Assembly (NCBI GenBank): GCA_965217895.1
Contig: CBDCJV010000002.1
Span: 2,048,001-2,112,000 of the forward strand
Length of the DNA stretch: 64,000 nucleotides
DNA from: Waterburya sp.
GTDB lineage: Bacteria > Cyanobacteriota > Cyanobacteriia > Cyanobacteriales > Xenococcaceae
Reading direction: 5' to 3'
Below the pieces are notes generated by a model. The model did no database searches. It had not been told where the DNA came from and was given only the letters and a program-made list of their open reading frames with translations. Below are positions 7,433 to 26,219 of the stretch, piece by piece. Each line of letters starts with the position of its first letter. The first letter of the stretch is position 1. Position numbers and translations under genes: made by a program.

Positions 7433-7439
7433 AAGAACT

Positions 7440-8175: not shown

Positions 8176-11100
8176 ATGCCTAATATAAATCGTCAATCTA
8201 AAACTAAAGCCACTCTTTCAGCGATCGCGGTTGTGGGGATGAGTTGTCAATATCCAGGGGCCAAAGACATTAGGCAACTTTGGTCGAATATCTTGGCAAA
8301 ACGACAGCAATTTCGACAAATTCCCGATGTACGCCTACCAATAGCTGAATATTACGATCGCGATCGCTCTGTCCCCGATAAGACTTATGGCGATCGCGCT
8401 GCGGTAATTGATGGTTTTGAGTTTGATTGGATTGGGCGACGCATTCCTCAGCAAACAGTACAGACTACAGATATCGTACATTGGCTGGCGTTGGAAACTG
8501 CCAATGAAGCTTTAAAAGATGCAGGCTTTAATCGCCAAAATGTGAATACAGCCAAAACGGGGGTAATTTTAGGCAACACCTTAACTGGAGAGCAAACTCG
8601 TGCCAGTACCTTACGTTTGCGCTGGCCTTACGTCAGACGAGCTTTAATCGCATCTGCCCAAGCTAGAAAAATGAGCGATCGAGTAATTGAAGCTTTGGTT
8701 GAAACAATGGAGCAGTTTTATAAATCTGTTTTTGCTCCCGTCAACGAAGATTCTTTGGCAGGAGGACTTTCTAACACTATTGCTGGTAGGATTTGCAACT
8801 TTTTCAATTTTGATGGTGGAGGATACACGGTTGATGGGGCTTGTGCTTCTTCCTTAATTGCTACAGCTACAGCTTGCAGCAAATTAGTTAGTGGCGATCT
8901 AGATTTGGCTTTGGCGGGAGGAGTAGACGTTAGTTTAGATACCTTTGAGCTAATTGGTTTTGCTAAAACTGGAGCTTTGACTGCGGGCGATATGGCAGTT
9001 TACGATCGCCGTGCTAGTGGTTTTATTCCAGGAGAAGGCTGTGGTTTTGTCGTTCTCAAACGATTAGCAGACGCAAGAGCAGCAGGAGATTATGTTTATG
9101 GCGTAATTCGAGGCTGGGGCATTTCTTCTGACGGTAAAGGCGGAATCACTGCACCTTCTGGGATAGGACAAAGCAAAGCTATACTCAGAGCCTATGAAAA
9201 AGCAGGTTATCATCCATCAGAATTAGATTTCATTGAAGGACATGGTACGGGAACTCCTGTAGGCGATCGCGTAGAATTAGAAGGGATTGCTTTAGCCATT
9301 TCTCAAGGAGAAGCCCAGATTAAACTCCGCTCGGTAGGCATTACTTCATTCAAATCTTTAGTCGGACATACCAAAGCAGCAGCAGGGGTTGGTGGTTTGA
9401 TTAAAGCTGTTATGGCAGTCAACCAGAGAATAATTCCTCCTACTGCTGGCTGTGCTGAAGCAAATCCTTTATTTGCCACTACTGCCCAATCTATTTATCC
9501 TGTTTTAACGGGAAAAGTTTGTCAGCCAAATACGACTCTTCGGGCTGGAGTTTCGGCAATGGGTTTTGGGGGAATTAATTCTCACCTTACTTTAGAGTCG
9601 GGCGATCATGCAGCCGAGCATTTGAAAACCGATTTGTTTCCTAAAGCTTTGCTAGTTTCGGCTCAAGACAGCGAAGTATTTATTTTAAGTGCCATTTCTG
9701 TTGAGAAATTATTAGAGCGCATTGAAAGACTAATCGATCTGGCAAGGGGAATTAGTCTGGCAGAGATGGTAGATTTAGCTGCCCTGCTAACAAGGCAAAT
9801 AGATTCCCAGCAACAGGTAAGAGCAGCAATAATTGTGACGACACCCAAGCAGTTAGCTGAAATTCTCCAGAAAATCAAACAGATTTTAGCAGATTCGCCA
9901 CCAGCGAAAGGAGAACTGACAACATCTCCCACTCAAGATTTTTGGCTGGCAAATACAGTTAACCATTCTAAAGTAGCCTTTATCTTTCCAGGACAAGGTT
10001 CGCAAAGATTGAACATGGCGAGTACTTTAGTGGAGCGTTATGACTGGGCGCAGCAGTTAGTTAGACAAGCAGACAAATGGTTAGAGGAAGTTAGTTGTCA
10101 GCCAGTTAGCCCTTTAATCTATTGTTGTTTAGAACAAGCAGCAGACGAAAGCGAAATAACTAATTGGTTTAGGGATCTATCTCGTGCTGAAATTGCTTCT
10201 CCTGCTATTTGCTTGGTTTCTTTATTGTGGCTGCGCTATCTCCAAGAACTAGGAATTGAACCCGTGGCAGTCGGTGGACATAGCTTAGGCGAATTGACGG
10301 CTTTTTATCAAATAGGAGCTTTTGACGCTAAGACTTTAATTCAGTTTGCAGCAATTAGAGGTCGAGCTTTAGCCAATTCTGGCAAAGAAACAGGAGCTAT
10401 GGCTAGTCTGGGTTGCGATCGCGCCTTTGCTGACCAAATCATTCAACAGGCATCGGGCTATGTGGTTATTGCTAATTTAAATAGTCCCAGCCAAACGGTT
10501 GTTTCAGGGGAATCTGAGAGTATTGACTCAGTTGTAAAAATAGCGGTTGCTCGAGGAATTCAAGTTAAAAAATTGCCTGTAGCTAATGCTTTTCATTCTG
10601 AGATAGTCAGAGAAGCAGCTAAATATATTACAAATAATGCTGCAGTTCCCGCCAAGCTAGTAGACACTGCGACTCCTTTATTTTCCAGTATCGATGGCAA
10701 ACAAATTCAACCAGAAGTTAAATTAAGCCACCATTTTGGCAAACAGATAGTTTCTGCGGTAGATTTTGTAGCTTTAACAACAAATATTTACCAGCATTGC
10801 GATTTAATACTAGAGGTTGGTTCTGGTCGAGTTTTAGCTAACCTAATTAATACAACTATCAACTCTAAACAGCCCGTTGGCTTTTGTACTGAAGGCAAAC
10901 CGACAACAAGTAAAAATCTTAACTGCTTTTTAGGCAGATTATTCGTTGCCAATCAAGAAATAAACTGGCAAGCACTATATAAAAATCGTTTAGTACATTC
11001 TTTTATTCCACCGTCGGAAAAATTATTTATTGATAATCCTTGCGAACGTCCTTTTAAAGTACCTGAAACTTATTTATCTCAATTAACACCAATTTTGACT

Positions 11101-14100
11101 GAGAATCAACCACCAAACAGTTTAAATAAACTAGAAAGCCTAGATAAAATTATGGCTGCTAATCAACACGACTTTAAAGAAATATTATCTCAGTATTTTA
11201 GCGATCGCAGTTCCTTTTTAGCTGAAATAATTAAAGCAGATCTGGCAACTCTACCAAAGCAATTATTAAATTTAGAAAGCAGAAGCGATCGGGATTTAGT
11301 ACCTATGCTATCTCGGTATTTCCAGATCAGAGGCTCGTTTCTAGGGCAAATCATTAATTCAGACCTAAAATCTTTAAACTATCTCGATGGGTTAAAAACG
11401 CGATCGCCCTACCAAGAATTAGAGTTGAGCAATGCTATAAAATCAAATCTCAATTATCTCAATGGCAATAGTAATAATCATCAACAAGCCGAGCAAAATT
11501 ATGTTAACAAAGCTGTTTCATTGAAGCCAGAAGTAAAGCATCAAGCCGAAGCAGCTAATAATTTGCGATCGCATATCGAACAATTTTTATTAAACTCAGT
11601 TGTCGAGAAAACAGGTTATCCCCTAGAAAGTATCGACCTAAGTTTAAAATTATTAGATGACTTAAATTTAGACTCGATTAAAGCAGGAGAACTAATTGCT
11701 ATAACTGCTAAGAAGTTTGGTGTAGCTGGGCAATTACAGCCCTCTAGTTTGGCTAACGGTACTCTCAAGCAGATAGCAGAAGAAATTGTCTTATCAATTT
11801 CTGGAGATTCAAAAGTAGTCAATGACAATCCTAAAGCTGAAGGCGCGGTACTAGCCAACAAAAATCAGAAAATCGTTCCAAATATTGTAGTTAGATCGTC
11901 AACTTCTACCTGGGTGCGTAATTTTGCGATCGCCTATGTCGAGCAAAAAATACCTCAACGGGATAAAGATTGGTTACAAGCCAAAGTTTTAGTTGTTACT
12001 GACAAGACTCATTTAATTGCTGATGTGGTAGCCGAACAGCTTGGTAATTTAGGTGCGCGAGTTGATCGCATTACTTATCAAGAAATAGATGATAATCTGA
12101 CTGTAACTGCTAACTATTCTGATTATTTTGCGTTGCTACCCCAGACGAGTAGCTCTTTACCATTAAAGACAATGGTAGAAAGGCTTAAAAGCATTGTTAC
12201 GGCTAGTAAAAACAGTCTTACTCCCAATATTGCTTATATTCAGTTTGGCGGTGGTTATTTCGGCGAGCGACCCCGCGCGCGGTCAACGCGCAAGGGAACC
12301 CGCGAGCTTGGACAGGGAAAACAAGCAATATCTCCAGAAGTATGTTGCGCTGCTGCTTTTGCTCGAAGCTGGCATTTAGAGCGTTCGGATTTGCGAGTGC
12401 GAGTTATCGATCTGGCTACAGAAATTGAACCCAATGATGCTGCTCAATTAGCGATCGCCGAACTAGCAGGAAATGAAGCGATTGTTACTGTAGGCTATGA
12501 TGCAAATAAGAGACGTTTAGTTCCCAGACCCCTATTACAGCAACCAGTTCACTACCAAAAGCGCGATCGCTCATGGTCGGAACAAGATGTGATTTTAGTT
12601 ACGGGAGGCGCGAAAGGAATCACCGCCGAGTGTGCTTTAGCTTTAGCGCAGTCAATTGATGTAAGAATGGCAATAGTGGGACGTTCTAACCAATCAAAGG
12701 TAGCTCAAACCTTAGAACGATTTCCTAAGCAAGATCGAATCCGCTACTATACCTGCGATATTACCGATGCTGATGCAGTCAAACGATTAATTACTACGAT
12801 TACTGCCGACTTAGGTACAGTTACTGGCGTAATTCATGGTGCGGGAGTCAATCAGCCTCAAAGAGTTGAAGAAGTCAGTGTTGAAGCTGCGGTTGAAGAA
12901 GTGTCGCCCAAGCTACTAGGAGCATATAACCTCTTGCAATCCTTGGCAGCAACTCCACCAAAGTTATTTATGGCGTTTAGCTCGATCATCGGCGTAACGG
13001 GAATGCCTGGTAATGCTTGGTATGGATTTTCTAACGAATCTCTAGCCATCTTACTGCGCCAGTTTAACCGCCATCACCCAGAAACTCAAACTCTTTCTTT
13101 GGCTTACAGCGTTTGGGGTGAGGTAGGCATGGGAGCGCGTTTGGGTAGTCTCAAAAATCTAGAGCGCATGGGCATTGATGCTATTCCTACCCAAGAAGGA
13201 GTAAATCGCTTTGTTCAGCTTTTTCATTACGATCCAGGAGTACAGCAGATAATTATTGCTGCACGTTTGGGTGGTTTGGATACCTGGCTACCAGATTTTT
13301 CTCCACCAACCAAATTACGTTTTATCGAGTCAGTTTTGCACCTCGAACCCGAAGTAGAATTGACCGCTCGCACTCATCTTAGTTTAGAACGGGATTTATA
13401 CTTACAAGACCATCTCTGGCGCGGGTCTTATCTCTTTCCCACCGTATTCGGTTTAGAAGCAATGGCTCAAGCAACTGCCTACGTTCTGGGGGAAGAAAAA
13501 CCTGCGATCGCAGCAATTGAAGATATTTCTTTGAAACAGCCAATTGTCGTCGATCCAGATCGGGGAGTGGCTATAGAAATTTATGCTGAGGTGTTAGAAG
13601 TCGATCTTCAGGGAGAACGACGAGTCAAAGTCGCAATTCGCAGCGAACAGAGTAACTTTACTAGCGATTGCTTTACCGCCACATTAGTTATTAAAGAGGC
13701 AAAAGCACCAGTAAAACTAGATTTGAAACTAGATCGAGCCTTAGAATTAAATCCCCAAACCGATCTTTATGGCGACTTACTCTTTCAGGGTTCGCGTTTT
13801 CAAAGAATGGGTAAAATTTTTACTCTGACTTCTACAAATTGTGTTTTCCAGGCTGAAATGCGATCGCCAGACGAACTAATAGCAGATAGCTTTACTACTT
13901 ATGAAGATAGCTATCTAATTTTGGGCGATCCTTACTTGAGAGATGTATTACTCCAGTCAGTCCAGCTTACTATTCCCCGCGATATTTCCTTGCCCGTTAA
14001 GATCGGTAAGATTGAACTGTTTAATAATTCTTCAAGTCGCAATAATTCTAACAAAATCGTAACGGCTCATTTGCAACCGCGGTCAGGAAATGAATATTTA

Positions 14101-15951
14101 AGTGAAGTTTTGCTTACCGACGACTCAGGCCTTGTTTTAGAAAAATTGACTAGCTATCGTCTGCGGATTCTCGAAGAACATCCTGATAACCCAACTGCGG
14201 TCGAATTGGCTTTTCCTGAAACTCGCGATCGCCAGCTACTCGATCGGGCTTTAAAATCTGTTACAGATAAGTTCGATCTAAATTTACCTGCTATAGCTCT
14301 GGGAGTTACGCCCAATATACACAAAGTCAGCAAAGAACAACGCCGTCAAATAGAAAAACCGATTGTAGCTGATGCTCTAAATACTAAACTAGGTTTATCC
14401 TCCACAGCAGAAATTGAATTTGAGATTGAGTCTTTAGCTTCTGGGAAACCACAGCTGAAGGGGGCGGAAACCGCAGGATTAGAACTGTCTCTATCTCACT
14501 GCGATCGCTATTGTTTGGCTGTAATAGATAAAACGCCACAAGGATGCGACATTGAGCCAATTACTCTTCGTTTGACAGAAGATTGGCAAGCCCTTTTAGG
14601 AAACTCCCAAAGCGAGATTATTGCAGAATTAATTCAACAAGGAGACAGCCTAGACATGGCTGGTACTAGAATTTGGTCGGCAGGTGAAGCAATTAATAAA
14701 GCCTTCAACGACACTGATGCCCAATTTTCAATTAGCAATCGCGATGGCGATGCGGTGTTGTTAAAGTGTTTGACTCCTACAGGCAAATACTATGTCGTTA
14801 CATTTCCTATTAAATTAACTCGTCCTCTAGAAAGAATCATTGCGATCGCCGTTTCCTTACCTGGAACTGATTCAATCCCTGTAGTTTCTGCCCTCTCAAC
14901 TGATATTGCCGAAAATCGCAGCCATCGCTCCCGTTATACCAGAGACAATCCCCAAGGACAATTAGTTTACGAACAGCGTTTTCAAGCCAGCTTTAAAGAT
15001 AGTGGCAGTATTAGTCGTCACGTCTATTTCTCCCAGTATTTTCGCTGGATTGGTAAAATTCGCGAAATACCGATGGAAAGCATTGCCAACCAAATTTTAA
15101 GAGACTTCTTAACTGGAGAATGGGGCATGGTAACTAATACCGTTAGTCTGCGGGTATTGGGTGAAGCCACTGCTTATGATGTGATTCAAGCCCGCGCTTG
15201 GGTAGGTAATATTGTTGATTCTTCTTTTACTACTTATATTGAATTTTGCCAAGTGCTGCCTGACGAATCTTTAAGCAGACTGGCGATCGCTGAAGTTAAA
15301 GCTACCTGGGTACGTCTAGTTAGCTATGGTGTTCCTTCTCCTATGACTTTTCCAGACTATCTACAAGAATACCTCGACCGATTCGCGACCAAAAAACCAG
15401 CCACTCTCGATCTTAAACAACCCGATTCTTTACCCCTGCCACCATTACCTGCTAGTCTGAAGGAAATAAACTTAGGTCATTTACTACAACAGGCTTCTTC
15501 TCAGGAGCGTTATGGACAGCTAATCTACTCCGAAGTTTTTCAGACAACTCTAGAAGAATCAAATTTAGTCGGTAATGTTTATTACGGCAACTACTTTATC
15601 TGGCAAGGTCGGATTCTCGATCTGTTTCTCTACTCAATCGCTCCTGAATATTTACGGGTTTCAAACCCTCGCGGGGAAATGATTTGTCTGTACAGTCGTA
15701 TGGACTATCTAAAAGAAGCAATGCCTTTTGACAAAATTCGCGTCGATCTTTATGTCAGCTCGGTTTTTGAATCTGGAGCAAAATTTAACTTTGAATTCTT
15801 TCGAGAACAACCAGACGGAAAAAGAGAAAAACTTCACATTGGTCAGCAAGAGGTGGCATGGGTAAAACGGCTAGAAAATGGTACTCCTGTATCTACATCG
15901 TTGCCTCCGATATTGAGACAAAAGCTTTTAAAATCATTTAGCAAAAACTAA
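8176..15951 (+). CDS. pksE: Enediyne-type iterative type I PKS (KS-AT-ACP-KR-DH-PPTase) with two fused C-terminal hot-dog thioesterase domains
   Basis: KS GGGYTVDGACASSL, EGHGTGT, GHTKAAAG; AT FPGQGSQ, GHSLG, NAFHS; ACP DDLNLDSI; KR VTGGAKGIT; DH DHLWRGSYLFP; PPTase SHC..GCDIE..RIWSAGEA; TE HVYFSQYFRWIGKIRE and EESNLVGNVYYGNYFIWQGR. Confidence 0.9.
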   Translation: MPNINRQSKTKATLSAIAVVGMSCQYPGAKDIRQLWSNILAKRQQFRQIPDVRLPIAEYYDRDRSVPDKTYGDRAAVIDGFEFDWIGRRIPQQTVQTTDIVHWLALETANEALKDAGFNRQNVNTAKTGVILGNTLTGEQTRASTLRLRWPYVRRALIASAQARKMSDRVIEALVETMEQFYKSVFAPVNEDSLAGGLSNTIAGRICNFFNFDGGGYTVDGACASSLIATATACSKLVSGDLDLALAGGVDVSLDTFELIGFAKTGALTAGDMAVYDRRASGFIPGEGCGFVVLKRLADARAAGDYVYGVIRGWGISSDGKGGITAPSGIGQSKAILRAYEKAGYHPSELDFIEGHGTGTPVGDRVELEGIALAISQGEAQIKLRSVGITSFKSLVGHTKAAAGVGGLIKAVMAVNQRIIPPTAGCAEANPLFATTAQSIYPVLTGKVCQPNTTLRAGVSAMGFGGINSHLTLESGDHAAEHLKTDLFPKALLVSAQDSEVFILSAISVEKLLERIERLIDLARGISLAEMVDLAALLTRQIDSQQQVRAAIIVTTPKQLAEILQKIKQILADSPPAKGELTTSPTQDFWLANTVNHSKVAFIFPGQGSQRLNMASTLVERYDWAQQLVRQADKWLEEVSCQPVSPLIYCCLEQAADESEITNWFRDLSRAEIASPAICLVSLLWLRYLQELGIEPVAVGGHSLGELTAFYQIGAFDAKTLIQFAAIRGRALANSGKETGAMASLGCDRAFADQIIQQASGYVVIANLNSPSQTVVSGESESIDSVVKIAVARGIQVKKLPVANAFHSEIVREAAKYITNNAAVPAKLVDTATPLFSSIDGKQIQPEVKLSHHFGKQIVSAVDFVALTTNIYQHCDLILEVGSGRVLANLINTTINSKQPVGFCTEGKPTTSKNLNCFLGRLFVANQEINWQALYKNRLVHSFIPPSEKLFIDNPCERPFKVPETYLSQLTPILTENQPPNSLNKLESLDKIMAANQHDFKEILSQYFSDRSSFLAEIIKADLATLPKQLLNLESRSDRDLVPMLSRYFQIRGSFLGQIINSDLKSLNYLDGLKTRSPYQELELSNAIKSNLNYLNGNSNNHQQAEQNYVNKAVSLKPEVKHQAEAANNLRSHIEQFLLNSVVEKTGYPLESIDLSLKLLDDLNLDSIKAGELIAITAKKFGVAGQLQPSSLANGTLKQIAEEIVLSISGDSKVVNDNPKAEGAVLANKNQKIVPNIVVRSSTSTWVRNFAIAYVEQKIPQRDKDWLQAKVLVVTDKTHLIADVVAEQLGNLGARVDRITYQEIDDNLTVTANYSDYFALLPQTSSSLPLKTMVERLKSIVTASKNSLTPNIAYIQFGGGYFGERPRARSTRKGTRELGQGKQAISPEVCCAAAFARSWHLERSDLRVRVIDLATEIEPNDAAQLAIAELAGNEAIVTVGYDANKRRLVPRPLLQQPVHYQKRDRSWSEQDVILVTGGAKGITAECALALAQSIDVRMAIVGRSNQSKVAQTLERFPKQDRIRYYTCDITDADAVKRLITTITADLGTVTGVIHGAGVNQPQRVEEVSVEAAVEEVSPKLLGAYNLLQSLAATPPKLFMAFSSIIGVTGMPGNAWYGFSNESLAILLRQFNRHHPETQTLSLAYSVWGEVGMGARLGSLKNLERMGIDAIPTQEGVNRFVQLFHYDPGVQQIIIAARLGGLDTWLPDFSPPTKLRFIESVLHLEPEVELTARTHLSLERDLYLQDHLWRGSYLFPTVFGLEAMAQATAYVLGEEKPAIAAIEDISLKQPIVVDPDRGVAIEIYAEVLEVDLQGERRVKVAIRSEQSNFTSDCFTATLVIKEAKAPVKLDLKLDRALELNPQTDLYGDLLFQGSRFQRMGKIFTLTSTNCVFQAEMRSPDELIADSFTTYEDSYLILGDPYLRDVLLQSVQLTIPRDISLPVKIGKIELFNNSSSRNNSNKIVTAHLQPRSGNEYLSEVLLTDDSGLVLEKLTSYRLRILEEHPDNPTAVELAFPETRDRQLLDRALKSVTDKFDLNLPAIALGVTPNIHKVSKEQRRQIEKPIVADALNTKLGLSSTAEIEFEIESLASGKPQLKGAETAGLELSLSHCDRYCLAVIDKTPQGCDIEPITLRLTEDWQALLGNSQSEIIAELIQQGDSLDMAGTRIWSAGEAINKAFNDTDAQFSISNRDGDAVLLKCLTPTGKYYVVTFPIKLTRPLERIIAIAVSLPGTDSIPVVSALSTDIAENRSHRSRYTRDNPQGQLVYEQRFQASFKDSGSISRHVYFSQYFRWIGKIREIPMESIANQILRDFLTGEWGMVTNTVSLRVLGEATAYDVIQARAWVGNIVDSSFTTYIEFCQVLPDESLSRLAIAEVKATWVRLVSYGVPSPMTFPDYLQEYLDRFATKKPATLDLKQPDSLPLPPLPASLKEINLGHLLQQASSQERYGQLIYSEVFQTTLEESNLVGNVYYGNYFIWQGRILDLFLYSIAPEYLRVSNPRGEMICLYSRMDYLKEAMPFDKIRVDLYVSSVFESGAKFNFEFFREQPDGKREKLHIGQQEVAWVKRLENGTPVSTSLPPILRQKLLKSFSKN

Positions 15952-16011
15952 TTATGGATCTAGGTCTGTAAAATTAGCTGTAGTTTGAAACAATTTTGAG
16001 GAGCAATTGAT

Positions 16012-16989
16012 ATGGACAATATGGAATTTATTATTAATGCAGTCAGTGGTACTGATGCCAATGACTTTCTCTTGGGCAGTCCTAACAATGATGCGATCGA
16101 GGGAAACGGTGGTAATGATTTGCTACTTGCTAATCTTGGAGATGACGCTTTAGTAGGTGGCAACGGTAACGATGCCATGTTTGGTGGTCCTGGGGTTGAT
16201 GTTTTAGATGGAGGCCCTGACGAGGATACGATCTTTGGTCAAGACGGTCTTGACGCGCTCAACGGTGGTGATGGCAACGATGCCATATTTGGTGGTGCAG
16301 ACCAAGATGCGCTCAACGGTGGCAATGGCGACGACGCTTTGTTTGGTGAGGGCGGTCTTAACTCGATTGACGGTGGTGATGGTCGCGATGCCCTATTTGG
16401 TGGTGAAGATAACGATATTTTAAATGGCGGTGCTGGGGATGATGGTTTATTAGGTAACGGCGGTAATGATGTCTTATTTGGCGAACTGGGCAACGATGTG
16501 ATGTCTGGCGGTGACGGCGACGATCGCATGAATGGCGATAAAAACAACGATGCTATGTTTGGTGGCAACGGTGACGATATCTTAATTGGTGGCGATGATA
16601 ACGACGTGCTTTCTGGAGATGACGGTAGCGATCTTTTAATTGGTGGCGCGGGAATAGACCAAATTACAGGCGGTGCTGGTGCCGATTTCTTTGGTTTGAC
16701 TACCGAAACAGGAGCCAACATTATTACCGATTTTGTAGTTGAAGATGATACTCTCTTTGTCTCCGCTGCGGATTTTGGTGGAGGCTTAACCCCAGGTGCG
16801 CTGATTCAACCAGAGAGTTTTGTCCTGGGAACGTCAGCTACTACGGAGAGCGATCGCTTTATTTACAATGATGCGGACGGTTCTCTATTCTTTGATGTAG
16901 ATGGAGTTGGCGCAAGCGAACAGATTCAAATAGCAAGCTTATCAACAGGACTTGAATTGACTAATAACGATATTTTCGTTTTTGCTTAA
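16012..16989 (+). CDS. RTX (hemolysin-type Ca-binding repeat) protein
   Basis: Many GGxGxDxL nonapeptides; C-terminal DRFIYN..GSLFFDVDG..DIFVFA typical of type I secreted proteins. Confidence 0.9.
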   Translation: MDNMEFIINAVSGTDANDFLLGSPNNDAIEGNGGNDLLLANLGDDALVGGNGNDAMFGGPGVDVLDGGPDEDTIFGQDGLDALNGGDGNDAIFGGADQDALNGGNGDDALFGEGGLNSIDGGDGRDALFGGEDNDILNGGAGDDGLLGNGGNDVLFGELGNDVMSGGDGDDRMNGDKNNDAMFGGNGDDILIGGDDNDVLSGDDGSDLLIGGAGIDQITGGAGADFFGLTTETGANIITDFVVEDDTLFVSAADFGGGLTPGALIQPESFVLGTSATTESDRFIYNDADGSLFFDVDGVGASEQIQIASLSTGLELTNNDIFVFA

Positions 16990-17039
16990 TTCATATAAAC
17001 CGCACCTCTATATTACCGAGAATAGAAAAGGAGACAATA

Positions 17040-17417
17040 ATGAAAATTCTCAGCCCTAAAATTCATGGATATCTAGACTATTTAGTAGTTGTCTGGTTTT
17101 TAGCTGCACCGACGTTATTCGGCTTGACTGACGTTGCTGCTAATATTTCTTATGCTCTGGCGATTATTCATCTAGGGTTAACTGTTTTGACGGCTTTTCC
17201 CTTGGGTGTAATTAAAGTAATTCCCTTGCAGTTTCACGGCGCGATCGAATTTATTGTCTCTTTTGCTTTGATTGCTTTGCCCTGGGTACTAGGATTTGCT
17301 TCAGTGGCATCGGCGCGTAATTTTTATATCGCTTCAGGAATTGCCATCTTTATAGTTTGGCTGATTACTCGCTATCAAAGTGCAGGAGTTAAAACAAAAA
17401 CAATCAATCAACCATAA
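17040..17417 (+). CDS. Small 4-TM membrane protein (SPW-repeat-like)
   Basis: HGYLDY..AAPTLFG, HGAIEF..LPWVLGF; four hydrophobic helices. Confidence 0.7.
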   Translation: MKILSPKIHGYLDYLVVVWFLAAPTLFGLTDVAANISYALAIIHLGLTVLTAFPLGVIKVIPLQFHGAIEFIVSFALIALPWVLGFASVASARNFYIASGIAIFIVWLITRYQSAGVKTKTINQP

Positions 17418-17542
17418 AGATTATCTAGTTAAGAAGTTAAGCAATCGCATTTAATTCTCGAATAGAAATACCGATCTATCATTAGAACACAGTTAAATAC
17501 TCACAATAATAATCTTTCGTCTTTAATCGATCAAAATAAATA

Positions 17543-19300
17543 ATGCTTACTGCTAAATTATTAGAATACGACGTAGTAATTATGGGTGCGGGTTTTGCTG
17601 GACTCTGCCAAGCTCGGCACTTAATGCTTAATGTTCCAGGAGTAAAAGTTGCTTTAGTCGATCCGCGACCCGAAAAGCGATCTCATAAAGATCTGAAAAT
17701 TGGTGAATCGACGATCGAAATTGCGGCTCTTTTTCTGTCCAAAGAATTAGGTCTGCACGAATACTTAATTGAAAACCACGCACCCAAAAAAGGCTTGAAT
17801 TTTCACTGGGCAAAAAACGGAGGCGCGGGTAAAACCAACGCTATAGAAGACTACTACCACGTTTGGTCAAACCGACAAGTACCAATTCCTTCTTTTCAAA
17901 TTAATCGAGCGAGGTTTGAAGAGGACTTGCTGGCTATGAATCAAGAAATGGGGGCTGTATTCTATCACGGGCGAGTAGTTGATGCCGATCTTACTCCCAA
18001 AGATGTAGTTAAAATCGTCACGATCAAAACTGGTGGAGAAAACTTGGAACTAAAAGCCAAGCACGTTATTGATGCTGCTGGTCGCAAGTTTATCATTGGG
18101 CGCAAAACAGACAATCTAATTTTTGAACCAGAAAATCTGATGGGATTGAATACTGGTTCTGCCTGGATGCGGATTAAAAACGCCGACCGCACTATTTTCC
18201 ACGACGGATATGACCCAACGGGAGCATCAACCAGTCATTACTACTCTACTAATCATTTTTTTGGGCGCGGTCATTGGCTGTGGATGATTCCTACCGATAC
18301 TGAATCTGGAGAATTATCTATTGGCATGATTCACCATCATCAAGAGTTACCAGCTAGCCAAGTTAATACCCAAGAAAAATTCCGTACTTTTCTGCAAAAT
18401 AACCATGCCATCTTAGATCGGTTGATTGAAAGTGGCGAACCAGTAGATTTTCAGTATCGATCGCGTTTGGCACACACTAGTAAAACCATGTTCTCAGAAG
18501 ACAACTGGTACGTACTCGGCGATGCTGCCTATATCTTCGATGCCTTTTATTCCTTTGGCACAACAACCGTTGCTTTAGCTATTGAAGCAATCACCGAAAT
18601 CGTGCGGGCTAAACTTGCTCAAGAACCAGATGCCGAAGCCAAACGTGCTGCATACAATGAGTTTAACTTGGCTTATGCCCGTAGCGTTAACTGTCTCTAT
18701 CGGGGTCACGATAAACAGCTAGGTCATGCCAGCGTCATGAGCTGGCGCATTTACTTTGAGTATATGTGGTGGTTTGGGGTTCAAGTCCCGATGTACGTTG
18801 GTAAATGGCATTTGGATCTCACCTTCATCTCGATATATGTCAAAACTTTAAATAGTAATGTAGATGGGCTGTTTGCCGATGTATGCCAACAGTTCGAGCA
18901 GTTGGTAGAACAAGATGTCAACCTTGGTTTAATGGACTGTTACCGCGCCGATGGATTGCTGGGTAACTATCACACCCTCAAGCACTTTGATCGCTTCTTA
19001 GAAAATACTAAACTCGAACCCAGACACTGCAACGTTTTTGCAGGTCTAAAATCTACTTGTTTTTATGCTGCTATTTGGTATGCCAAGTTTCAGTGGAAGG
19101 GTTTTGGCGTGCGGGGATTGTTAAGACCCCTCAGTCTTTATCATTTTGGTAGGTTATTAGCACTATCGGCTCAAGGAGCAATAGGCGAACTGGTCTACAA
19201 ATCTAAAACTAGAAATTTACCTGCTAACAGTCAAGTCGAACAAATGCAGCGAGAGTTTGAGTCTTACCAATACCAAACCGAACTACAGCCTTGGATTTAA
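17543..19300 (+). CDS. Flavin-dependent halogenase-like enzyme 1
   Basis: GAGFAG FAD motif, LKIGEST (putative catalytic Lys), WLWMIP (WxWxIP), GDAA..FDAFYSFG. Confidence 0.8.
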   Translation: MLTAKLLEYDVVIMGAGFAGLCQARHLMLNVPGVKVALVDPRPEKRSHKDLKIGESTIEIAALFLSKELGLHEYLIENHAPKKGLNFHWAKNGGAGKTNAIEDYYHVWSNRQVPIPSFQINRARFEEDLLAMNQEMGAVFYHGRVVDADLTPKDVVKIVTIKTGGENLELKAKHVIDAAGRKFIIGRKTDNLIFEPENLMGLNTGSAWMRIKNADRTIFHDGYDPTGASTSHYYSTNHFFGRGHWLWMIPTDTESGELSIGMIHHHQELPASQVNTQEKFRTFLQNNHAILDRLIESGEPVDFQYRSRLAHTSKTMFSEDNWYVLGDAAYIFDAFYSFGTTTVALAIEAITEIVRAKLAQEPDAEAKRAAYNEFNLAYARSVNCLYRGHDKQLGHASVMSWRIYFEYMWWFGVQVPMYVGKWHLDLTFISIYVKTLNSNVDGLFADVCQQFEQLVEQDVNLGLMDCYRADGLLGNYHTLKHFDRFLENTKLEPRHCNVFAGLKSTCFYAAIWYAKFQWKGFGVRGLLRPLSLYHFGRLLALSAQGAIGELVYKSKTRNLPANSQVEQMQREFESYQYQTELQPWI

Positions 19301-19338
19301 TAAATAGCTTTCCTGAAGGATACCGCCTTCTTATATTC

Positions 19339-19366
19339 GTAGAGGCGAACAATTGTTCGCCTCTAC
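19339..19366. repeat. Perfect 28-bp GTAG-type REP-like palindrome between the halogenase genes
   Basis: GTAGAGGCGAACAA|TTGTTCGCCTCTAC; degenerate relative near 48795-48822. Confidence 0.75.
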
Positions 19367-19393
19367 CTTTCTACTTTTTTAATAAAACCAACT

Positions 19394-21190
19394 ATGAATT
19401 CTCTTACCACTCAGACATTAGAATACGACGTTGCCATTATGGGGGCGGGATTTGCTGGTGTTTGCCAAGCCCGACATCTGCTGCTAAATATTCCTAATAT
19501 TCGAGTGGCGATAATTGACCCTCGCCCCATGCTGCGATCGCAGAAAGATTTAAAACTCGGTGAATCGTTAATTGAAGTCGCTGCTCTTTTTCTAGCTAAA
19601 GAATTAGGACTTAATGATTATCTAATCGAAAACCACACGCCCAAATCTGGGTTAAACTTTCACTGGCCCAAACAAAGCGATCGCACCGAAACTCTCGATG
19701 ACTACTATCACGTTTGGGCAAATCGACAGACCCCCATTGCTTCATACCACTTACACCGAGCTAAATTCGAGCAGGATCTGCTCAAAATGAACGCAGACAT
19801 GGGAGCAATTTTTTATCACGGTCGCGTTACCGATGTAGATCTAACCGAGGGAGACGCGCTTAAAAATATTGAAGTTAAACAAGGCAAAGAAACTTTAAAC
19901 ATCAAAGCCAAGCACGTTATCGATGCTGCTGGTCGTCGATTTCTCATCGGACAGAAAACCGATAATCTATTGTTTGGTGCCGAAAATCTCCTTGGAGTTA
20001 ATAACGGTTCTGCTTGGCTGCGAGTTAAAAACGTTGATCGCCAGATCTTTGATGAGGGATACGATCCTACGGGAACAACGAGCAGCCGTTACTATGCTAC
20101 CAATCACTATTTTGGTTCGGGACATTGGCTGTGGATGATTCCTATCGATAAACATTCCAACGAGCTATCAATTGGGGTGGTTCACCATCACAATGTTATT
20201 GCAGCTAAAGAAATTAATACCCAAGAGAAATTTTTTGGGTTTCTCGAAGCAAATCACAAGCTTTTGGCACGTCTGATTGATAGTGGTGAAATTGTTGATT
20301 TTCACTATTGGTCGAAGCTAGCTTATAAAAGTAAAACTCTGTTTTCCCCAGATAATTGGTATGTCCTGGGGGATGCAGCGCAAATCTTTGATGGTTTCTA
20401 TTCCTATGGAACGACGATGATTGCTTTTGCGGTAGAAAGCACCACAGAAATTATTCGCGCCAAGCTAGCGGGAGAGGCTGATGCTGAAATCAAGCGATCG
20501 GCATACAATGACTTTAATCTTGCTTACGGTCGCAGCGTTAACTGTCTCTATCGAGGTCATGATAAACAATTAGGTCATGCCAGCGTTATGAGTTGGCGTA
20601 TTTACTTTGAGTATATGTGGTGGTTTGGGGTACATATACCAATGTATATCGGTAAATGGCATCTCAACCTGAAGTTTGTTGACAAATACGTAGACATTGC
20701 TAATGCCAACGTCGATGGGCTTTTTGCCGATCTTTCTCAGCAATTTGATCGCTTAGTAGAACAAAGAGCGAATATCGGCTTGATGGATCCTTACCGAGCC
20801 GATCGCCTGTTTGGATATAGCACATTACAGCACTTTGATGACTTTTTAGAAAATACTAAATTCGAGCCAATGCGGTGTAATGTTTTCGCCAGCATGAAAA
20901 ATGCTTATTTTTACATCGCGCTGTGGTATGTACTGTTTCAGTGGAAAGGGTTTGGTATTGCTGGGTTAATCAATCCCCGTCATCTATATCACTTCGGTCG
21001 TTTGTTAGCACTATCGGTTAAAGCAGTTATCGGTGAAATAATTTATAAATTCAAAACCAGAGGTTTGCCCGACAATAGCCAAGTCGAACAGATTCGTCAA
21101 GAGTTTGAGAGTTACCGATACCGACCACAGCAGTTGATGCCAACAAAAGCGGTGCAACAGGAGCAGGAGGAGTTTGCCAAACAGCGATAA
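19394..21190 (+). CDS. Flavin-dependent halogenase-like enzyme 2 (paralog of enzyme 1)
   Basis: GAGFAG, LKLGESL, WLWMIP, GDAAQIFDGFYSYG; colinear with 17543..19300. Confidence 0.8.
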   Translation: MNSLTTQTLEYDVAIMGAGFAGVCQARHLLLNIPNIRVAIIDPRPMLRSQKDLKLGESLIEVAALFLAKELGLNDYLIENHTPKSGLNFHWPKQSDRTETLDDYYHVWANRQTPIASYHLHRAKFEQDLLKMNADMGAIFYHGRVTDVDLTEGDALKNIEVKQGKETLNIKAKHVIDAAGRRFLIGQKTDNLLFGAENLLGVNNGSAWLRVKNVDRQIFDEGYDPTGTTSSRYYATNHYFGSGHWLWMIPIDKHSNELSIGVVHHHNVIAAKEINTQEKFFGFLEANHKLLARLIDSGEIVDFHYWSKLAYKSKTLFSPDNWYVLGDAAQIFDGFYSYGTTMIAFAVESTTEIIRAKLAGEADAEIKRSAYNDFNLAYGRSVNCLYRGHDKQLGHASVMSWRIYFEYMWWFGVHIPMYIGKWHLNLKFVDKYVDIANANVDGLFADLSQQFDRLVEQRANIGLMDPYRADRLFGYSTLQHFDDFLENTKFEPMRCNVFASMKNAYFYIALWYVLFQWKGFGIAGLINPRHLYHFGRLLALSVKAVIGEIIYKFKTRGLPDNSQVEQIRQEFESYRYRPQQLMPTKAVQQEQEEFAKQR

Positions 21191-21236
21191 CCATTTAGAT
21201 CTGCTGTCAATTTTAATAACTTAAATTTAAATAGAT

Positions 21237-22253
21237 ATGTTATTGGAATTAGCTAAATATATACTCGCAGGTGCGATCGCCTTGCTTTTATTCTTGATAG
21301 TGATAGGAAGGGTCTACCAAGCCACTGCTACTGCAAGAGATTGCTCCAAATATCCGCCTCCAGGTAAGCTAATATATATCGGCGGGTATAAACTTCACCT
21401 TGATTGTCAGGGAGAAGGCGAGATTACCGTAGTTATGGATTATGGTTTGGGGGGCTTATCTTCCCTTTGGAGTCTGGTACAGTCAAAAGTAGCAAAATTT
21501 ACTCAGGTCTGTACCTATGACCGTGCTGGTTATGGTTGGAGCGATCGCAGTCCTTATCCTCGTACGAGTCAGCAGCTAGTTCGAGAACTGCATTTATTGT
21601 TAACTAAAGCCGAAATTAAACCTCCCTACATCTTGGTGGGTCATTCTTTAGGAGGCTTGAATATGCGTTTATTCGCCAGTCAATATCCCGATGAAGTTAG
21701 AGCAATAGTATTGGTAGATGCCGTACCCGCTAATATTTATTCTCGCTTAAATCCTCAGTTTCAGAAATATATGGCCAAAACCAACCAGATGTTTTTTTGG
21801 TTGTCTATTCTGTCGCGATTTGGTTTGTTGCGCTTGGGAACTCAACTGCTAGGGAATAAAGTCGCTCCAGATTTTGTCCGTAAGCTACCTGCTGAAATTC
21901 AACCAATAGTTCTGGCTCAGTTTTGCCCTAAGACTTTTAATACAGCGATCGCCGAAAGTCTGTTAATGGAAGATAGTGCCAAGCAAGTTAGCCAGACAAA
22001 ATTACCAGAAGATTTGCCCTTAATATTGCTATCTCACGGAATCAATATGTTTTCTAACCTTTCAGTTTCAGAAGCAGAAAAAGCTGGGTCGGTTTGGCAG
22101 AAACTGCAAGCAGAAACGGCATTGACTTCAAAAGGTATGTTAAACCAGGCTCAAACAAGCGGTCATGATATTCATATCGATTGCCCTCAGCTAGTAATAG
22201 ATGGGATTCGTCAAGCGATTTTATTGTCCGAAGGGCGATCGCGCGATCAATAA
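21237..22253 (+). CDS. Alpha/beta hydrolase with N-terminal membrane anchor
   Basis: YDRAGYGWS, GHSLG nucleophile elbow, C-terminal SGHDIH. Confidence 0.88.
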   Translation: MLLELAKYILAGAIALLLFLIVIGRVYQATATARDCSKYPPPGKLIYIGGYKLHLDCQGEGEITVVMDYGLGGLSSLWSLVQSKVAKFTQVCTYDRAGYGWSDRSPYPRTSQQLVRELHLLLTKAEIKPPYILVGHSLGGLNMRLFASQYPDEVRAIVLVDAVPANIYSRLNPQFQKYMAKTNQMFFWLSILSRFGLLRLGTQLLGNKVAPDFVRKLPAEIQPIVLAQFCPKTFNTAIAESLLMEDSAKQVSQTKLPEDLPLILLSHGINMFSNLSVSEAEKAGSVWQKLQAETALTSKGMLNQAQTSGHDIHIDCPQLVIDGIRQAILLSEGRSRDQ

Positions 22254-22326
22254 GATAAAAGCTCGAAAAAATATTTAAATTAATAGAAAAGAGTAGACAC
22301 AATTTAGTCAACCCAAAATACTATTT

Positions 22327-24339
22327 ATGATTCGCATTCTGCTAGTAGACGATTGCAACATGATACGGCAAGGACTTCAAGCATTGCTCGAACTCAGAGC
22401 GAAACTAAAAGTAGTGGGTACTGCCGAAGATGGTCACAGCGTAATAGAACAGGTAAAGAATCTCCAACCTGATATTGTGTTGATGGATATCGAGATGCCA
22501 GGAATGAGTGGCATAACTGCCACCGAAAAAATTTGTCAGCAATTTCCCCAGACAAAAGTTATCGTTCTCAGCAGCCACGAAGAGCAAGAATATGTTATTC
22601 AAGCTTTAAAAGCGGGAGCAGAAGGCTATTTACTAAAAAATGCTCATGCTGATGATCTAGAACAGGCAATTTTCGCAGTATATCGAGGTCAGTGCCAGAT
22701 AGAGTCAAAATTATTTAAAGAAGTATTCGCCAAATCTTCTATTTTGCGATCTCTTGAATCATCAGAACTAAACACATCTACTTCGATAGGCGAGCGATCG
22801 CCTGAGTTAGAAAGGGATCTCAACCAGGCGTTTAATTATACGGAGAACAGTAAAAATGGCTCATCGTCAAAGATTAGCAAGACGATTCCAAAACTAGTAA
22901 ATGAACGATCGTCATCTGAGATTGACGAAGTAAACGCTAGCTCTGCTTCAAAACGAGATACTGTTTATCAGCCATTAGCTTGGGGTTTAGAAACATCGGC
23001 GTTAAACTCTGACTCGATTGAGGAAAAACCAAAATTGCAGCCTAAAAAAACCATATTTTTCCAGTATTTGTGGTGGTGGATTATCGGCTTAGGGGTCTTT
23101 TCCATCTTATTGATTGCTATAATTACTTTTGTTTATTTACGAGCTAGCAAAAATTCTCCTCAACCAGTTGTAGAAACTCGCGTCGTACCCCAAGCAGTTT
23201 CAGCAATTGGTTATTTAGAACCACAAGGAGAAGCAATTAAACTATCTGCACCTGCTTTTTTGGAAGGGGCGCGTATCGAGCAGTTGCTGGTCAAACGAGG
23301 AGAAAAGGTTAAAACTGGGCAAGTAGTAGCAATTTTAGATAATCGCGATCGCTTACAGGCTGCTCTCCAACAAGCACAAGCAGAAGTAAAAACGGCTCAA
23401 GCTCGTCTGGCACAAGTCAAAGCAGGAGCCAAACAAGGAGAAATCCAATCGCAAAACGCTAAACTTCAAGAGACAAAAGCCGAATTAGCTGGGCAAATTG
23501 CTACCCAAACCGCCAACATTGCTAATTTAAAAGCTCAACTTGAAGGACAAACTAATTCTCAACGGGCAACTATTGCCAGATTAAAGGCTGAATTAAACAA
23601 CGCGACTAAAGAATGTCAGCGATACGAATTTCTCTTAGCCGATGGTGCGATCGCTGCTTCCAAACGCGATCGGATCTGCTTGCAGCAAGAAACTACTCAA
23701 AAACAACTCCAAGCTGCAAATGTAAATTTAATTGAAACTAAAGCGACCCTACAACAACAAATCGGTGAAGCCCAAGCTAATTTGAAACGTACTAAAGCAA
23801 CTTTAGCTAACCAAATTAATGAAGCCGAAGCTAGTTTTAAAGCCGTAGCCGAAGTCCGCCCTGTAGATGTAGCCGTCGCTCAATCCGAATTAGCAACTGC
23901 GATCGCTGCTGTTAAAAAGGGACAAGCAGACTTAGATTTAGCCTCTGTAAAATCGCCAATAAACGGTCAGATCTTAGAGATTAATACTTGGCCAGGAGAA
24001 TTTGTTGACAATGCCAAAGGTATAGTGGTGATGGGCGATACCCAGAATATGTACGTAGTCGCAGAAGTCTACGAAACCGATATAGATCGCGTTCACATCG
24101 GTCAAAGCGCAACCATTACTAGCGATGGAATTACTCAAAAACTAGCTGGAACTGTCGATGATGTTGGTTGGCAAATTGGCACTAAAGACGTTCTTGGTAC
24201 TGATCCTGTAGCAGATACAGACGCTAGAGTTGTCAAAGTCAAAATTCGCTTAAACGCCAAATCTAGCCAGCGAGTAAAGCATTTAACTAACCTAGAAGTT
24301 AACGCCATTATCAATACATCCAAACAGATTCAAAAATAG
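22327..24339 (+). CDS. Receiver domain fused to a DevB/HlyD-family membrane fusion protein
   Basis: N-terminal NarL-type REC (LLVDD, LMDIEMP, VLSS, YLLKN), low-complexity linker, TM helix, then AVSAIGYLEPQGE, coiled coil, VAEVYETDI, DARVVKVKIRL. Confidence 0.88.
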   Translation: MIRILLVDDCNMIRQGLQALLELRAKLKVVGTAEDGHSVIEQVKNLQPDIVLMDIEMPGMSGITATEKICQQFPQTKVIVLSSHEEQEYVIQALKAGAEGYLLKNAHADDLEQAIFAVYRGQCQIESKLFKEVFAKSSILRSLESSELNTSTSIGERSPELERDLNQAFNYTENSKNGSSSKISKTIPKLVNERSSSEIDEVNASSASKRDTVYQPLAWGLETSALNSDSIEEKPKLQPKKTIFFQYLWWWIIGLGVFSILLIAIITFVYLRASKNSPQPVVETRVVPQAVSAIGYLEPQGEAIKLSAPAFLEGARIEQLLVKRGEKVKTGQVVAILDNRDRLQAALQQAQAEVKTAQARLAQVKAGAKQGEIQSQNAKLQETKAELAGQIATQTANIANLKAQLEGQTNSQRATIARLKAELNNATKECQRYEFLLADGAIAASKRDRICLQQETTQKQLQAANVNLIETKATLQQQIGEAQANLKRTKATLANQINEAEASFKAVAEVRPVDVAVAQSELATAIAAVKKGQADLDLASVKSPINGQILEINTWPGEFVDNAKGIVVMGDTQNMYVVAEVYETDIDRVHIGQSATITSDGITQKLAGTVDDVGWQIGTKDVLGTDPVADTDARVVKVKIRLNAKSSQRVKHLTNLEVNAIINTSKQIQK

Positions 24340-24351
24340 GGGATTAAATTA

Positions 24352-25524
24352 ATGTTCGATCGCTTGTTTACTGCTTGGCTACAGCTAAAATATCAAAAAA
24401 TTCGGTTTTTAATTGCACTTTCGGGGGTAATTTTTGCCGTTGTCATTGTTTTTATGCAATTGGGTATTCGCGATGCCTTATTTAACAGTGCGGTTCGTTT
24501 TCACCAAGGTTTACAAGGAGACTGCTTTATTATTAGTCCTCGCTCGACATCTTTAATCGCCATGGAAAGTTTTTCTCAACGCCGTTTGGTGCAAGCCTTA
24601 GCTTTTGAAGAAGTAGAATTTGTTAATCCGATTTATCTTGATTTTGTCCAGTGGAAAAATCCCGAATCTAGAAAATACTGGCGTAATATTTTTGTAATAG
24701 GTTTCGATCTTCGACACCAAACTTTCGACTTACCTGGAGTTAAAGCAAGTCTCAATCAACTTCAACTTCCAGATACTATTTTATTTGATCGCACTTCGAG
24801 AACTGAATTTGGACCAGTAGCCGAACAATTTGAGGAAAAAGGTTCGGTGATTACCGAACTGGGAAGTAATAGCGGTTCTAATTGTCGAGTTAAAGTAGTA
24901 GGATTATTTGAGTTAGGAACTTCTTTTGGTTCTGATGGCAACATTATTACCAGCGACGTTAACTTTTTGCGGATCTCAAATACTCGTCAAAAAGGCTTTA
25001 TTGATGTTGGTTTAATTAAATTAAAATCGGCTGTCAATCCAGAACTTTTTAAAACTAAGCTGCAAAAATATTTAGCCCAAGATGTCAGAATTTTTACCAA
25101 ACAGGGATTTATTAACTTTGAAAAAAGCTATTGGCAAAGCAGCACTGCCATTGGCTTTATTTTTAATTTGGGTGTCGCTTTGGGCCTAATCGTCGGCATT
25201 GTCGTGGTTTATCAAATACTTTATACCAACATTTCCGACCACTTGCAGGAATACGCCACTTTAAAAGCGATCGGTTACAGTCGAAGATATATGTTAAATA
25301 TAGTTTTTCAACAAGCTTTAATTATCGGAATTTTGGGTTATATTCCAGGATTATTAATTACTATTATTCAATATGAGTTTACCAAACAGGCAACTTTGCT
25401 ACCAATTGAGATGACTTGGCAAAGAGCGGCGTATGTCTTGGTAGCAACCATAATTATGTGTTCGATCTCTGGGGTTTCGGCGATGAATAAGCTGAAGTCT
25501 GCCAACCCTGCCGATATCTTTTAA
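24352..25524 (+). CDS. devC: DevC-family ABC exporter permease
   Basis: AWLQL..FAVVIVFMQLG, YQILYTNISDHLQEYATLKAIGY, C-terminal ANPADIF. Confidence 0.9.
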   Translation: MFDRLFTAWLQLKYQKIRFLIALSGVIFAVVIVFMQLGIRDALFNSAVRFHQGLQGDCFIISPRSTSLIAMESFSQRRLVQALAFEEVEFVNPIYLDFVQWKNPESRKYWRNIFVIGFDLRHQTFDLPGVKASLNQLQLPDTILFDRTSRTEFGPVAEQFEEKGSVITELGSNSGSNCRVKVVGLFELGTSFGSDGNIITSDVNFLRISNTRQKGFIDVGLIKLKSAVNPELFKTKLQKYLAQDVRIFTKQGFINFEKSYWQSSTAIGFIFNLGVALGLIVGIVVVYQILYTNISDHLQEYATLKAIGYSRRYMLNIVFQQALIIGILGYIPGLLITIIQYEFTKQATLLPIEMTWQRAAYVLVATIIMCSISGVSAMNKLKSANPADIF

Positions 25525-25535
25525 TCTTTTTAGCG

Positions 25536-26219
25536 ATGAACCCAATTGTGATCCGCAATTTAAATCATTATTTTGGCGAACAAGCTTTAGTCAAACAAAC
25601 CTTATTTGACATCAATATAGAAATCAAAGCGGGTGAGATTATAATCCTAACTGGTCCTTCAGGATCTGGTAAAACTACCTTGCTAACTTTAATCGGTGGA
25701 CTGCGATCGGTTCAATCTGGCAGCTTGCTAACTTTAAATCGAGAATTATGCGGGGCAAGTGAAGCCGACTTAGTCCAACTCAGACGCAAAATTGGCTATA
25801 TCTTTCAGGCACACAATTTATTACCCTTTATGACCGCACAACAAAACGTGCAGATGTCTTTAGAACTAGATAATAATTTAAGTAGTCGTCAAGCTGCTGT
25901 AAAAGCCATGGAAATGCTGGCAGCAGTAGGCTTAGAAGCAAGAGCTAAATACTATCCCCAAAAACTTTCAGGGGGACAAAAACAACGGGTGGCGATCGCC
26001 AGAGCTTTAGCCAGCAATCCTGAGTTAGTTTTAGCCGATGAACCAACTGCTGCTTTAGATAGTAAAACAGGTCGAGAAGTTGTCAATATAATGCGTCGCT
26101 TGGTCAAAGAAAAAAACTCGACGATCCTTTTAGTAACTCATGACAATCGTATTTTAGACACAGCCGATCAAGTTATCCATCTAGAGGATGGTCGCTCGAT
26201 CGGGATAAGTGGTAACTAA
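25536..26219 (+). CDS. devA: DevA-family ABC exporter ATPase
   Basis: GPSGSGKT, LSGGQKQR, LADEPTAALD, VTHD. Confidence 0.9.
   Translation: MNPIVIRNLNHYFGEQALVKQTLFDINIEIKAGEIIILTGPSGSGKTTLLTLIGGLRSVQSGSLLTLNRELCGASEADLVQLRRKIGYIFQAHNLLPFMTAQQNVQMSLELDNNLSSRQAAVKAMEMLAAVGLEARAKYYPQKLSGGQKQRVAIARALASNPELVLADEPTAALDSKTGREVVNIMRRLVKEKNSTILLVTHDNRILDTADQVIHLEDGRSIGISGN

Follow-up and report, generated by a model that had tools for sequence, protein, structure and literature searches.

All enediyne clusters that PMC4480864 compares share a cassette of five genes, and pairs of a PKSE-type polyketide synthase (PKS) and its thioesterase lead to a C15 heptaene (PMC9992847). In cyanobacteria, Microcystis aeruginosa PCC 7806 was described to possess a PksE-like iterative PKS together with three halogenases, for which no product was assigned (Frangeul et al., 2008, PMC2442094). 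The enediyne-type PKS cluster of Microcystis also appears in PMC4139720, where its transcripts were counted in a bloom, and in PMC4247773, where a cyanobacterial enediyne ketosynthase (KS) clade was placed. An enediyne-type 'T1PKS 1' with transport genes was found in the same genus and enediynes were predicted from it (bioRxiv 2022.10.12.511943). PMC10308959 likewise notes enediyne KSs in cyanobacteria, for which no compound had been reported. No matching passage was found in Humbert 2013 (PMC3741299). Based on the literature searched, with subscription journals and supplements lying outside that search, no product has been assigned to this cluster type. Here we describe a gene cluster of this kind from Waterburya sp. 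(host genome of 5.29 Mb, 99.89% complete), which lies in a stretch of 64,000 nucleotides (C2:2048001-2112000), hereafter the window.

Nine open reading frames (ORFs) occupy window positions 8176-26219, all on the plus strand and with intergenic gaps of 11-125 bp, in the order PKSE, RTX, SPW, Hal1, Hal2, hydrolase, DevB, DevC, DevA. A PksE-like iterative PKS thus stands beside two halogenase genes, the Microcystis type being defined by two or three, and the cluster belongs to an orphan type that has been in print since 2008. What is new here are the ortholog clades of Hal1 and Hal2 with their invariant lysine, the complementary motifs of the hot-dog domains, sister clusters that pair the halogenases with E3-like genes, the purifying selection, and the location as cargo of a Tn7-like element. 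All nine genes are under purifying selection, with dN/dS values of 0.07-0.29 against the loci L001 and L002, and the cluster is intact. L001, from a Waterburya metagenome-assembled genome (MAG), is the closest named relative (PKS 91%, halogenases 95-98% identical). Judged from its sequence and by analogy to characterized systems, the cluster probably, though by no means certainly, directs the synthesis and export of a linear polyene lipid that bears chlorine or bromine, and not of an enediyne.

The first gene (8176-15951, plus strand) encodes a PKSE-type iterative PKS of 2591 amino acids (aa) with the order KS, acyltransferase (AT), acyl carrier protein (ACP), ketoreductase (KR), dehydratase (DH), phosphopantetheinyl transferase (PPTase) and two hot-dog domains. 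Pfam recovered KS, AT, ACP, KR, DH and the C-terminal 4HBT fold, and all catalytic motifs align with those of SgcE from the C-1027 cluster. This concerns the KS (8221-9609; C223/H356/H398), the AT (9979-10887; S703, malonyl type, with the AFH motif as in SgcE), the single ACP (11584-11784; S1167), the KR (12592-13119; Y1616) and the DH (13351-14187; H1746/D1923). The PPTase-like domain (approximately 14416-14856; D2125/E2171) gave no Pfam match in the synthase and is assigned from the SgcE motif alignment and a tblastn match on the SgcE locus. The domain order with intact motifs that a previous sequence-only reading of this DNA had proposed is therefore borne out. The window KS is 52% identical to that of SgcE, and in a quick tree of 39 rows both are joined with a Shimodaira-Hasegawa-like approximate likelihood ratio test (SH-aLRT) value of 100, apart from a PfaA-like and 13 other KS rows, at a join where, as the tool warned, long branches meet. 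The dN/dS value of the synthase is 0.18.

The synthase differs in architecture from many of its relatives, in which the enzyme is split after the AT and two ACPs, the number found in most relatives, are present, whereas the window, L001 and L002 encode one chain with one ACP and a twice-repeated helical motif (RxSFL...IIxxDL; 11179-11385) at the junction. Split relatives carry a single copy of this motif, which lies towards the end of the KS-AT protein in L044 and towards the start of the ACP-KR protein in L012, L025 and L027; the repeat is likely a relic of gene fusion. An assembly artifact was considered as origin of the fused synthase and rejected, since L001 and L002 show the same fusion and a soil-metagenome contig covers 8347-12277.

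The cassettes of C-1027 (SgcE3/E4/E5/E/E10), CalE8/CalE7 and DynE8/DynE7 share domain order and catalytic motifs with the window, which comprises both a PKSE with intact catalytic residues and an E10-type hot-dog thioesterase, here fused and doubled. In contrast to the actinomycete cassette, the window cluster lacks E3, E4, E5 and later tailoring genes, and has instead a doubled fused thioesterase, flavin halogenases and DevBCA. We used the annotated C-1027 locus as reference, on which the names E2-E5 are assigned by gene order; its thioesterase is identical to PDB entry 4i4j. No ORF of the cluster resembles E3, E4 or E5, as the sequence-only reading had stated, and the absence extends to the host genome for E2/E3 and E4. 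SgcE2, SgcE3 and SgcE4 gave no tblastn match there at E<=0.5, and E3 (DUF1702) gave none in a search that was positive in three of five control genomes. The E4 (CRTAC1/UnbV) profile PF07593 found no match in the host genome and was silent in every control genome as well, while the SgcE4 and SgcE5 tblastn queries recovered their own C-1027 locus, which for E4 is the sole positive control. For SgcE5 one distant match was obtained (25% identity, E 3e-6; C2:1579689-1580564), about 475 kb off and with unrelated neighbors; an RnfD-like/UnbU gene of the E5 type linked to the PKSE was not found in the host genome. A PKSE-like KR-DH region is present in 46 locus rows, none of which contains E4 or E5. 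Six of these rows repeat the same genome or strain (L059, L071, L079, L083, L108, L110) and were dropped, leaving 40 distinct loci including the window. Since the cassette is absent from both locus and genome, this is not a canonical enediyne cluster: it resembles the opening phase of enediyne biosynthesis, yet it falls outside the clusters defined by the enediyne cassette.

The C-terminal part of the synthase comprises two hot-dog domains, both of which match SgcE10 (E 3e-18 and 2e-6; the window thioesterase is 33% identical to it). All six PDB sequence matches are thioesterases, among them CalE7, DynE7 and SgcE10. The last 353 residues are predicted to fold as a double hot-dog with a predicted local distance difference test score (pLDDT) of 82.5. 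This model resembles FatA (Z 23.8, root-mean-square deviation (rmsd) 2.8, 248 aligned residues), and its second half CalE7 (Z 18.3, rmsd 2.1, 140 aligned residues). Domain 1 (14938-15396, plus strand) keeps an arginine (R2296) equivalent to R35 of EspE7, the arginine of 'CRE' for which an R35A structure exists in the PDB, and has lost the E-x-NLVGNVY loop. Domain 2 (15514-15933, plus strand), which is closest to SgcE10/CalE7/DynE7, keeps the loop as EESNLVGNVYY and has leucine (Leu2481) at the place of the arginine. The pattern recurs in 23 aligned relatives: in domain 1 the arginine is kept and the NLVGNVY loop absent in all 23, and in domain 2 the loop is kept (as a variant in three rows) and the arginine lost in 18, the window included. 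Because the halves retain complementary motifs, the sequence suggests that they share one active site in a pseudo-dimeric arrangement.

Hal1 (17543-19300, plus strand; 585 aa; dN/dS 0.07) and Hal2 (19394-21190, plus strand; 598 aa; dN/dS 0.08) are flavin-dependent halogenase-like proteins, and both score above the Trp_halogenase cut-off of Pfam. The FAD-binding GxGxxG and the WxWxIP motif (WLWMIP in Hal1) are present. K82 of Hal1, which corresponds to K84 in Hal2, and W-x-W-x-I-P (W245, W247, I249, P250) are invariant in all 69 aligned rows. K82 is aligned with the PKKFG segment of PltA, whose lysine within K-x-G we take to be catalytic. A Foldseek search with Hal1 returned the flavin halogenases FasV, PltA, ChlB4, PltM, CtcP, Bmp2, CmlS and CndH as its top eight hits (E about 1e-20 and template modeling (TM) scores of 0.5-0.6 against two-component halogenases). 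The top PDB sequence and profile matches are two-component halogenases too, with PltA at E 7e-24 by profile, while the ESM Atlas yielded only generic Trp_halogenase clusters. Fold, GxGxxG, lysine position and WxWxIP are thus like those of PltA, ChlB4, FasV, Mpy16, Bmp2, CndH and CmlS; unlike PltA-type enzymes, the family of Hal1 and Hal2 carries about 200 additional, mostly helical residues at the C-terminus. No characterized member of this family of 585-620 aa was found. Hal2 is 67% identical to Hal1, yet it forms a separate ortholog clade: in a quick tree of 69 rows the orthologs of Hal1 and Hal2 group in clades of 19 and 13 rows (SH-aLRT 99 each) that span several families, which fits with two distinct and long-kept jobs.

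Outside PKSE clusters, a member of the halogenase family immediately follows a stand-alone ACP in the modular PKS loci L016, L053, L065 and L068-L070, and an arrangement of ACP, halogenase and modular PKS/nonribosomal peptide synthetase (NRPS) is common to Moorena and several metagenome or genome loci (L016:473-4361, L053:1404-16703, L065-L070). Members standing alone occur in Verrucomicrobia and Myxococcota. Hal1 is 65% identical to a 588-aa protein of Moorena producens JHB, whose ortholog shows the ACP-halogenase-PKS order; when a longer Moorena locus was sought in seven genomes, the homolog was found in one, on a 4-kb contig. JamD is described as a single-component halogenase (PMC11725856). 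We considered the Moorena homolog as a JamD-type alkyne halogenase and rejected this, as Hal1 matches two-component enzymes; also, the published upjamD sequence does not lie upstream of the homolog in L016, a comparison that did without a direct JamD alignment.

The following scheme for product and order of steps was inferred from the PKSE/thioesterase chemistry described in parts of PMC9992847 and PMC8341276. The synthase would prime its own ACP and go through repeated rounds of malonyl condensation, ketoreduction and dehydration, ending at a conjugated polyene with a length of about C14-C18; domains and residues are observed, the chemistry is carried over from SgcE/CalE8, and chain length is not predictable. 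Hal1 and Hal2 would then introduce one halogen each, at different positions of a chain that is probably still bound to the ACP, with FADH2 from a reductase encoded elsewhere in the host genome, where five genes with flavin-reductase domains lie. Chlorine is the probable halogen because the hosts are mostly from freshwater and soil; the family features are observed, and substrate, halide and timing are conjectural. Next, the double hot-dog domain, pseudo-dimeric and with one presumed shared site as its observed motifs and predicted fold suggest, would release the chain, possibly with decarboxylation and dehydration to a terminal alkene as in the enediyne case. Finally, DevBCA would export the hydrophobic product, with hydrolase, RTX and SPW proteins as putative envelope accessories. 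Solanimycin (PMC10204066) was considered as a precedent and dropped because its synthase, as described there, is a trans-AT PKS and not a PKSE.

Several observations weigh against a halogenated polyene. The KR-DH half of the synthase is only 27-30% identical to SgcE, so that the product may differ from the heptaene. The closest characterized halogenases are only 15-22% identical to Hal1 and Hal2 and act mostly on aromatic rings, and the best NCBIfam scores, all far under cut-off, belong to models of monooxygenase-type LodB and geranylgeranyl reductase. The cluster contains no flavin reductase. Furthermore, members of the halogenase family are found beside an aromatic ammonia lyase and a CoA ligase (L050) or a DAHP synthase and an NRPS (L018), and PKSE-DevBCA clusters without halogenase exist (L054:8077-17193, L056:8631-19129). 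Hal1 and Hal2 might instead be hydroxylases, epoxidases or cyclases, and an oxygenated or cyclized polyene lipid would be exported to the envelope, where DevBCA delivers heterocyst glycolipids. The low identity to any characterized halogenase, weak matches to Lycopene_cycl, LodB, QhpG and geranylgeranyl-reductase models, and a kynurenine monooxygenase from rank 29 of the fold search speak for this, and an enediyne cluster is known to yield polyene polyols (PMC9682884). However, the lysine at the K-x-G position of PltA and WxWxIP are invariant and halogenases occupy the top ranks of both fold and profile searches, so we regard oxygenases or cyclases as unlikely.

If the halogens were installed cryptically and eliminated to alkynes, the halogenases would cover part of the E3/E4/E5 role and the product would be a linear enyne or polyyne. 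In 2024, Gui et al. reportedly obtained an iodoheptaene and a diiodotetrayne from the actinomycete cassette, and 12 of the 40 distinct loci pair the same halogenase family with an E3-like DUF1702 protein, L045 and L085 adding a desaturase. In the window cluster, however, neither DUF1702 nor a desaturase or another candidate eliminase is encoded, and the halogenases are not of the single-component alkyne type represented by JamD. We therefore rate such an elimination as quite improbable. The sequence-only reading had named a halogenated polyene or polyyne rather than an enediyne: the missing cassette, the halogenase features, the Microcystis precedent and the lack of an assigned product in the literature searched hold, the halogenated polyene is still inferential, and the polyyne became a minority reading because the cluster encodes no desaturase-like or alkyne-forming enzyme. 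Even less probable is that the halogenases act on a second, aromatic block from primary metabolism, which the hydrolase or a hot-dog domain would join to an unhalogenated polyene. It would agree with the aromatic substrates of the nearest characterized relatives and with the aromatic-pathway genes in L018 and L050, but the window cluster has no gene for aromatic supply, ligase or acyltransferase, and the hydrolase is absent from many relatives. That the cluster belongs to a true enediyne pathway, with E3/E4/E5 encoded at other sites of the genome, is already largely refuted and hardly credible: the grouping of the window KS with SgcE and the one weak E5-like gene would fit to it, whereas the failure to find E2/E3 and E4 genome-wide, the distance and neighborhood of the 25% identical E5-like gene, and the lack of E4 and E5 among the PKSE-like locus rows contradict it.

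The halogenase family is present in 38 of the 40 distinct loci, a count biased by the use of the halogenase as query for most of them. Among 401 cyanobacterial genomes, the thioesterase query matched in 10, host included, and in seven of the nine others halogenases were nearby on the same contig; the halogenase query matched in 14. In eight genomes of the same genus, no PKS or halogenase gene match was among the matches listed. The Microcystis loci L010, L011 and L022 show the same order of PKS, halogenase, hydrolase and DevBCA, with a PKS 57-62% and a halogenase 73-75% identical to the window. Like the window, PCC 7806 combines a PksE-like iterative PKS with several halogenases, three according to its published description versus two here. 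The Microcystis synthase is split in two and has two ACPs, whereas that of the window is one polypeptide with one ACP; the window also differs in the receiver domain on DevB, the Tn7-like cargo, and the lack of a Cys-rich protein of 120-130 aa. This protein (117-132 aa, without Pfam match; L010:13891-14277 and orthologs) follows the halogenases in many relatives, where an 80-aa hydrophobic ORF and a protein of about 300 aa with a signal-like N-terminus recur as well.

Hot-dog domains were found in 29 of the 40 loci, three of which have DUF1702 too. The other 11 lack a hot-dog domain in the fetched stretch, and nine of them (L023, L026, L029, L046, L048, L051, L084, L086, L088) combine the PKSE and the same halogenases with two DUF1702 (E2/E3-like) genes; the DUF1702 pair and the thioesterase hardly ever occur together. 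These sister clusters often also encode either a GMC oxidoreductase or a carotenoid-cleavage oxygenase together with an aldehyde dehydrogenase. Another variant (L045:2096-20000 and L085), which has one DUF1702 gene beside its fused double hot-dog and three halogenases and also encodes a fatty-acid desaturase and a transferase, is the best candidate for a polyyne product. In L054 and L056 a flavin amine-oxidase-family oxidoreductase replaces the halogenases, and L056 also encodes an aminotransferase and a separate, stand-alone thioesterase.

The remaining genes of the window cluster are likewise on the plus strand. An RTX Ca-binding nonapeptide-repeat protein (16012-16989; 325 aa), present in only some relatives, and a small SPW-repeat membrane protein (17040-17417; 125 aa) appear accessory, and an alpha/beta hydrolase with hydrophobic N-terminus and GHSLG motif (21237-22253; S137) follows the halogenases. 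The exporter consists of a DevB-family membrane fusion protein (22327-24339), the ABC permease DevC (24352-25524; TIGR01185) and the ABC ATPase DevA (25536-26219; TIGR02982), each above its own NCBIfam cut-off. All three subunit models of the heterocyst glycolipid exporter thus apply; in contrast to that exporter, the one in the window adjoins a PKSE cluster and its DevB bears an N-terminal response-regulator receiver domain (22327-22700; Pfam and NCBIfam), a fusion that, of all loci examined, the window shares with L001 and L002 only. Two more DevB/DevC-like pairs lie elsewhere in the host genome. The co-directional arrangement with fused thioesterases, two halogenases and an exporter was thus recognized correctly in the sequence-only reading; RTX, SPW and hydrolase genes, the receiver domain and the Tn7-like element go beyond it. 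The GC content of the nine genes (38-44%) is similar to that of the flanking DNA, and a promoter scan gave 27 sites versus 39.6 expected. A 12-pair palindrome lies between Hal1 and Hal2 (19339-19366), where strain variants (three sequencing runs) have 27 other letters. Other type I PKS genes, 27-31% identical to the window synthase, were found on C2 near 4.74, 3.89, 1.62, 0.46 and 0.67 Mb.

The whole nine-gene cluster is cargo inside a Tn7-like element (7642-33164). Its distal end (7642-7670, plus strand) starts with TGT and is a 29-nt inverted repeat, 86% complementary to the glmS-proximal end (33136-33164, minus strand), which is found 26 bp past the stop codon of glmS. A CAAAAA direct repeat borders both ends on the outside, and tnsA, tnsB and tnsC are encoded at 29070-33055 (minus strand). 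The element shares with Tn7-like elements at glmS the TGT...ACA inverted ends, the insertion about 25 bp past this gene, and tnsABC. A full-length tnsC is missing, the ORF having 288 aa, and no tnsD/tniQ was found in the element, with only one sub-cut-off TniQ match elsewhere in the host genome. Nested debris of mobile elements fills the region from 26.3 to 28.9 kb. It includes an insertion sequence (IS) fragment at 26275-26979 that has inverted repeats of 43 nt, a piece resembling a transposase near 27148-27681, and part of a reverse transcriptase at 27777-28478. Because of this debris and the lack of a tniQ above cut-off in the genome, the element looks defective. A tnsA remnant (7436-7572), with a possible older end within 7436-7641, suggests that an earlier element had occupied this site. 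In the Waterburya MAG (L001) some 155 kb separate the cluster from glmS and there is no tnsAB match, so that the link to the transposon is specific to the window lineage. Just beyond the distal end, at 5039-7183, a copy of psbA (D1), a transposase fragment and a Uma2 gene are located.

Taken together, the cluster type recurs across many cyanobacterial genera and is a long-standing orphan of bloom-forming and symbiotic cyanobacteria such as Microcystis, Prochloron, Aetokthonos and Anabaena. The window copy is convenient for testing, since a single gene provides priming, chain building and release and is followed by just two tailoring enzymes. From a PKSE gene by itself, an enediyne cannot be predicted. 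If the halogenated polyene is indeed the product, the cluster would provide flavin halogenases that act on polyenes and a new class of metabolites. More tentatively, and as an idea we rather doubt, one might speculate that cyanobacteria run a parallel version of early enediyne chemistry, in which flavin halogenases acting on a non-aromatic PKSE polyene replace the halogen-installing step of E3/E4/E5. If so, halo-polyenes or linear enynes would form a new product class, with bloom-forming Microcystis among the producers, and the sister clusters that combine E3-like proteins with halogenases, most of which have no thioesterase, would represent intermediates occurring in nature from which the role of E3 could be read.

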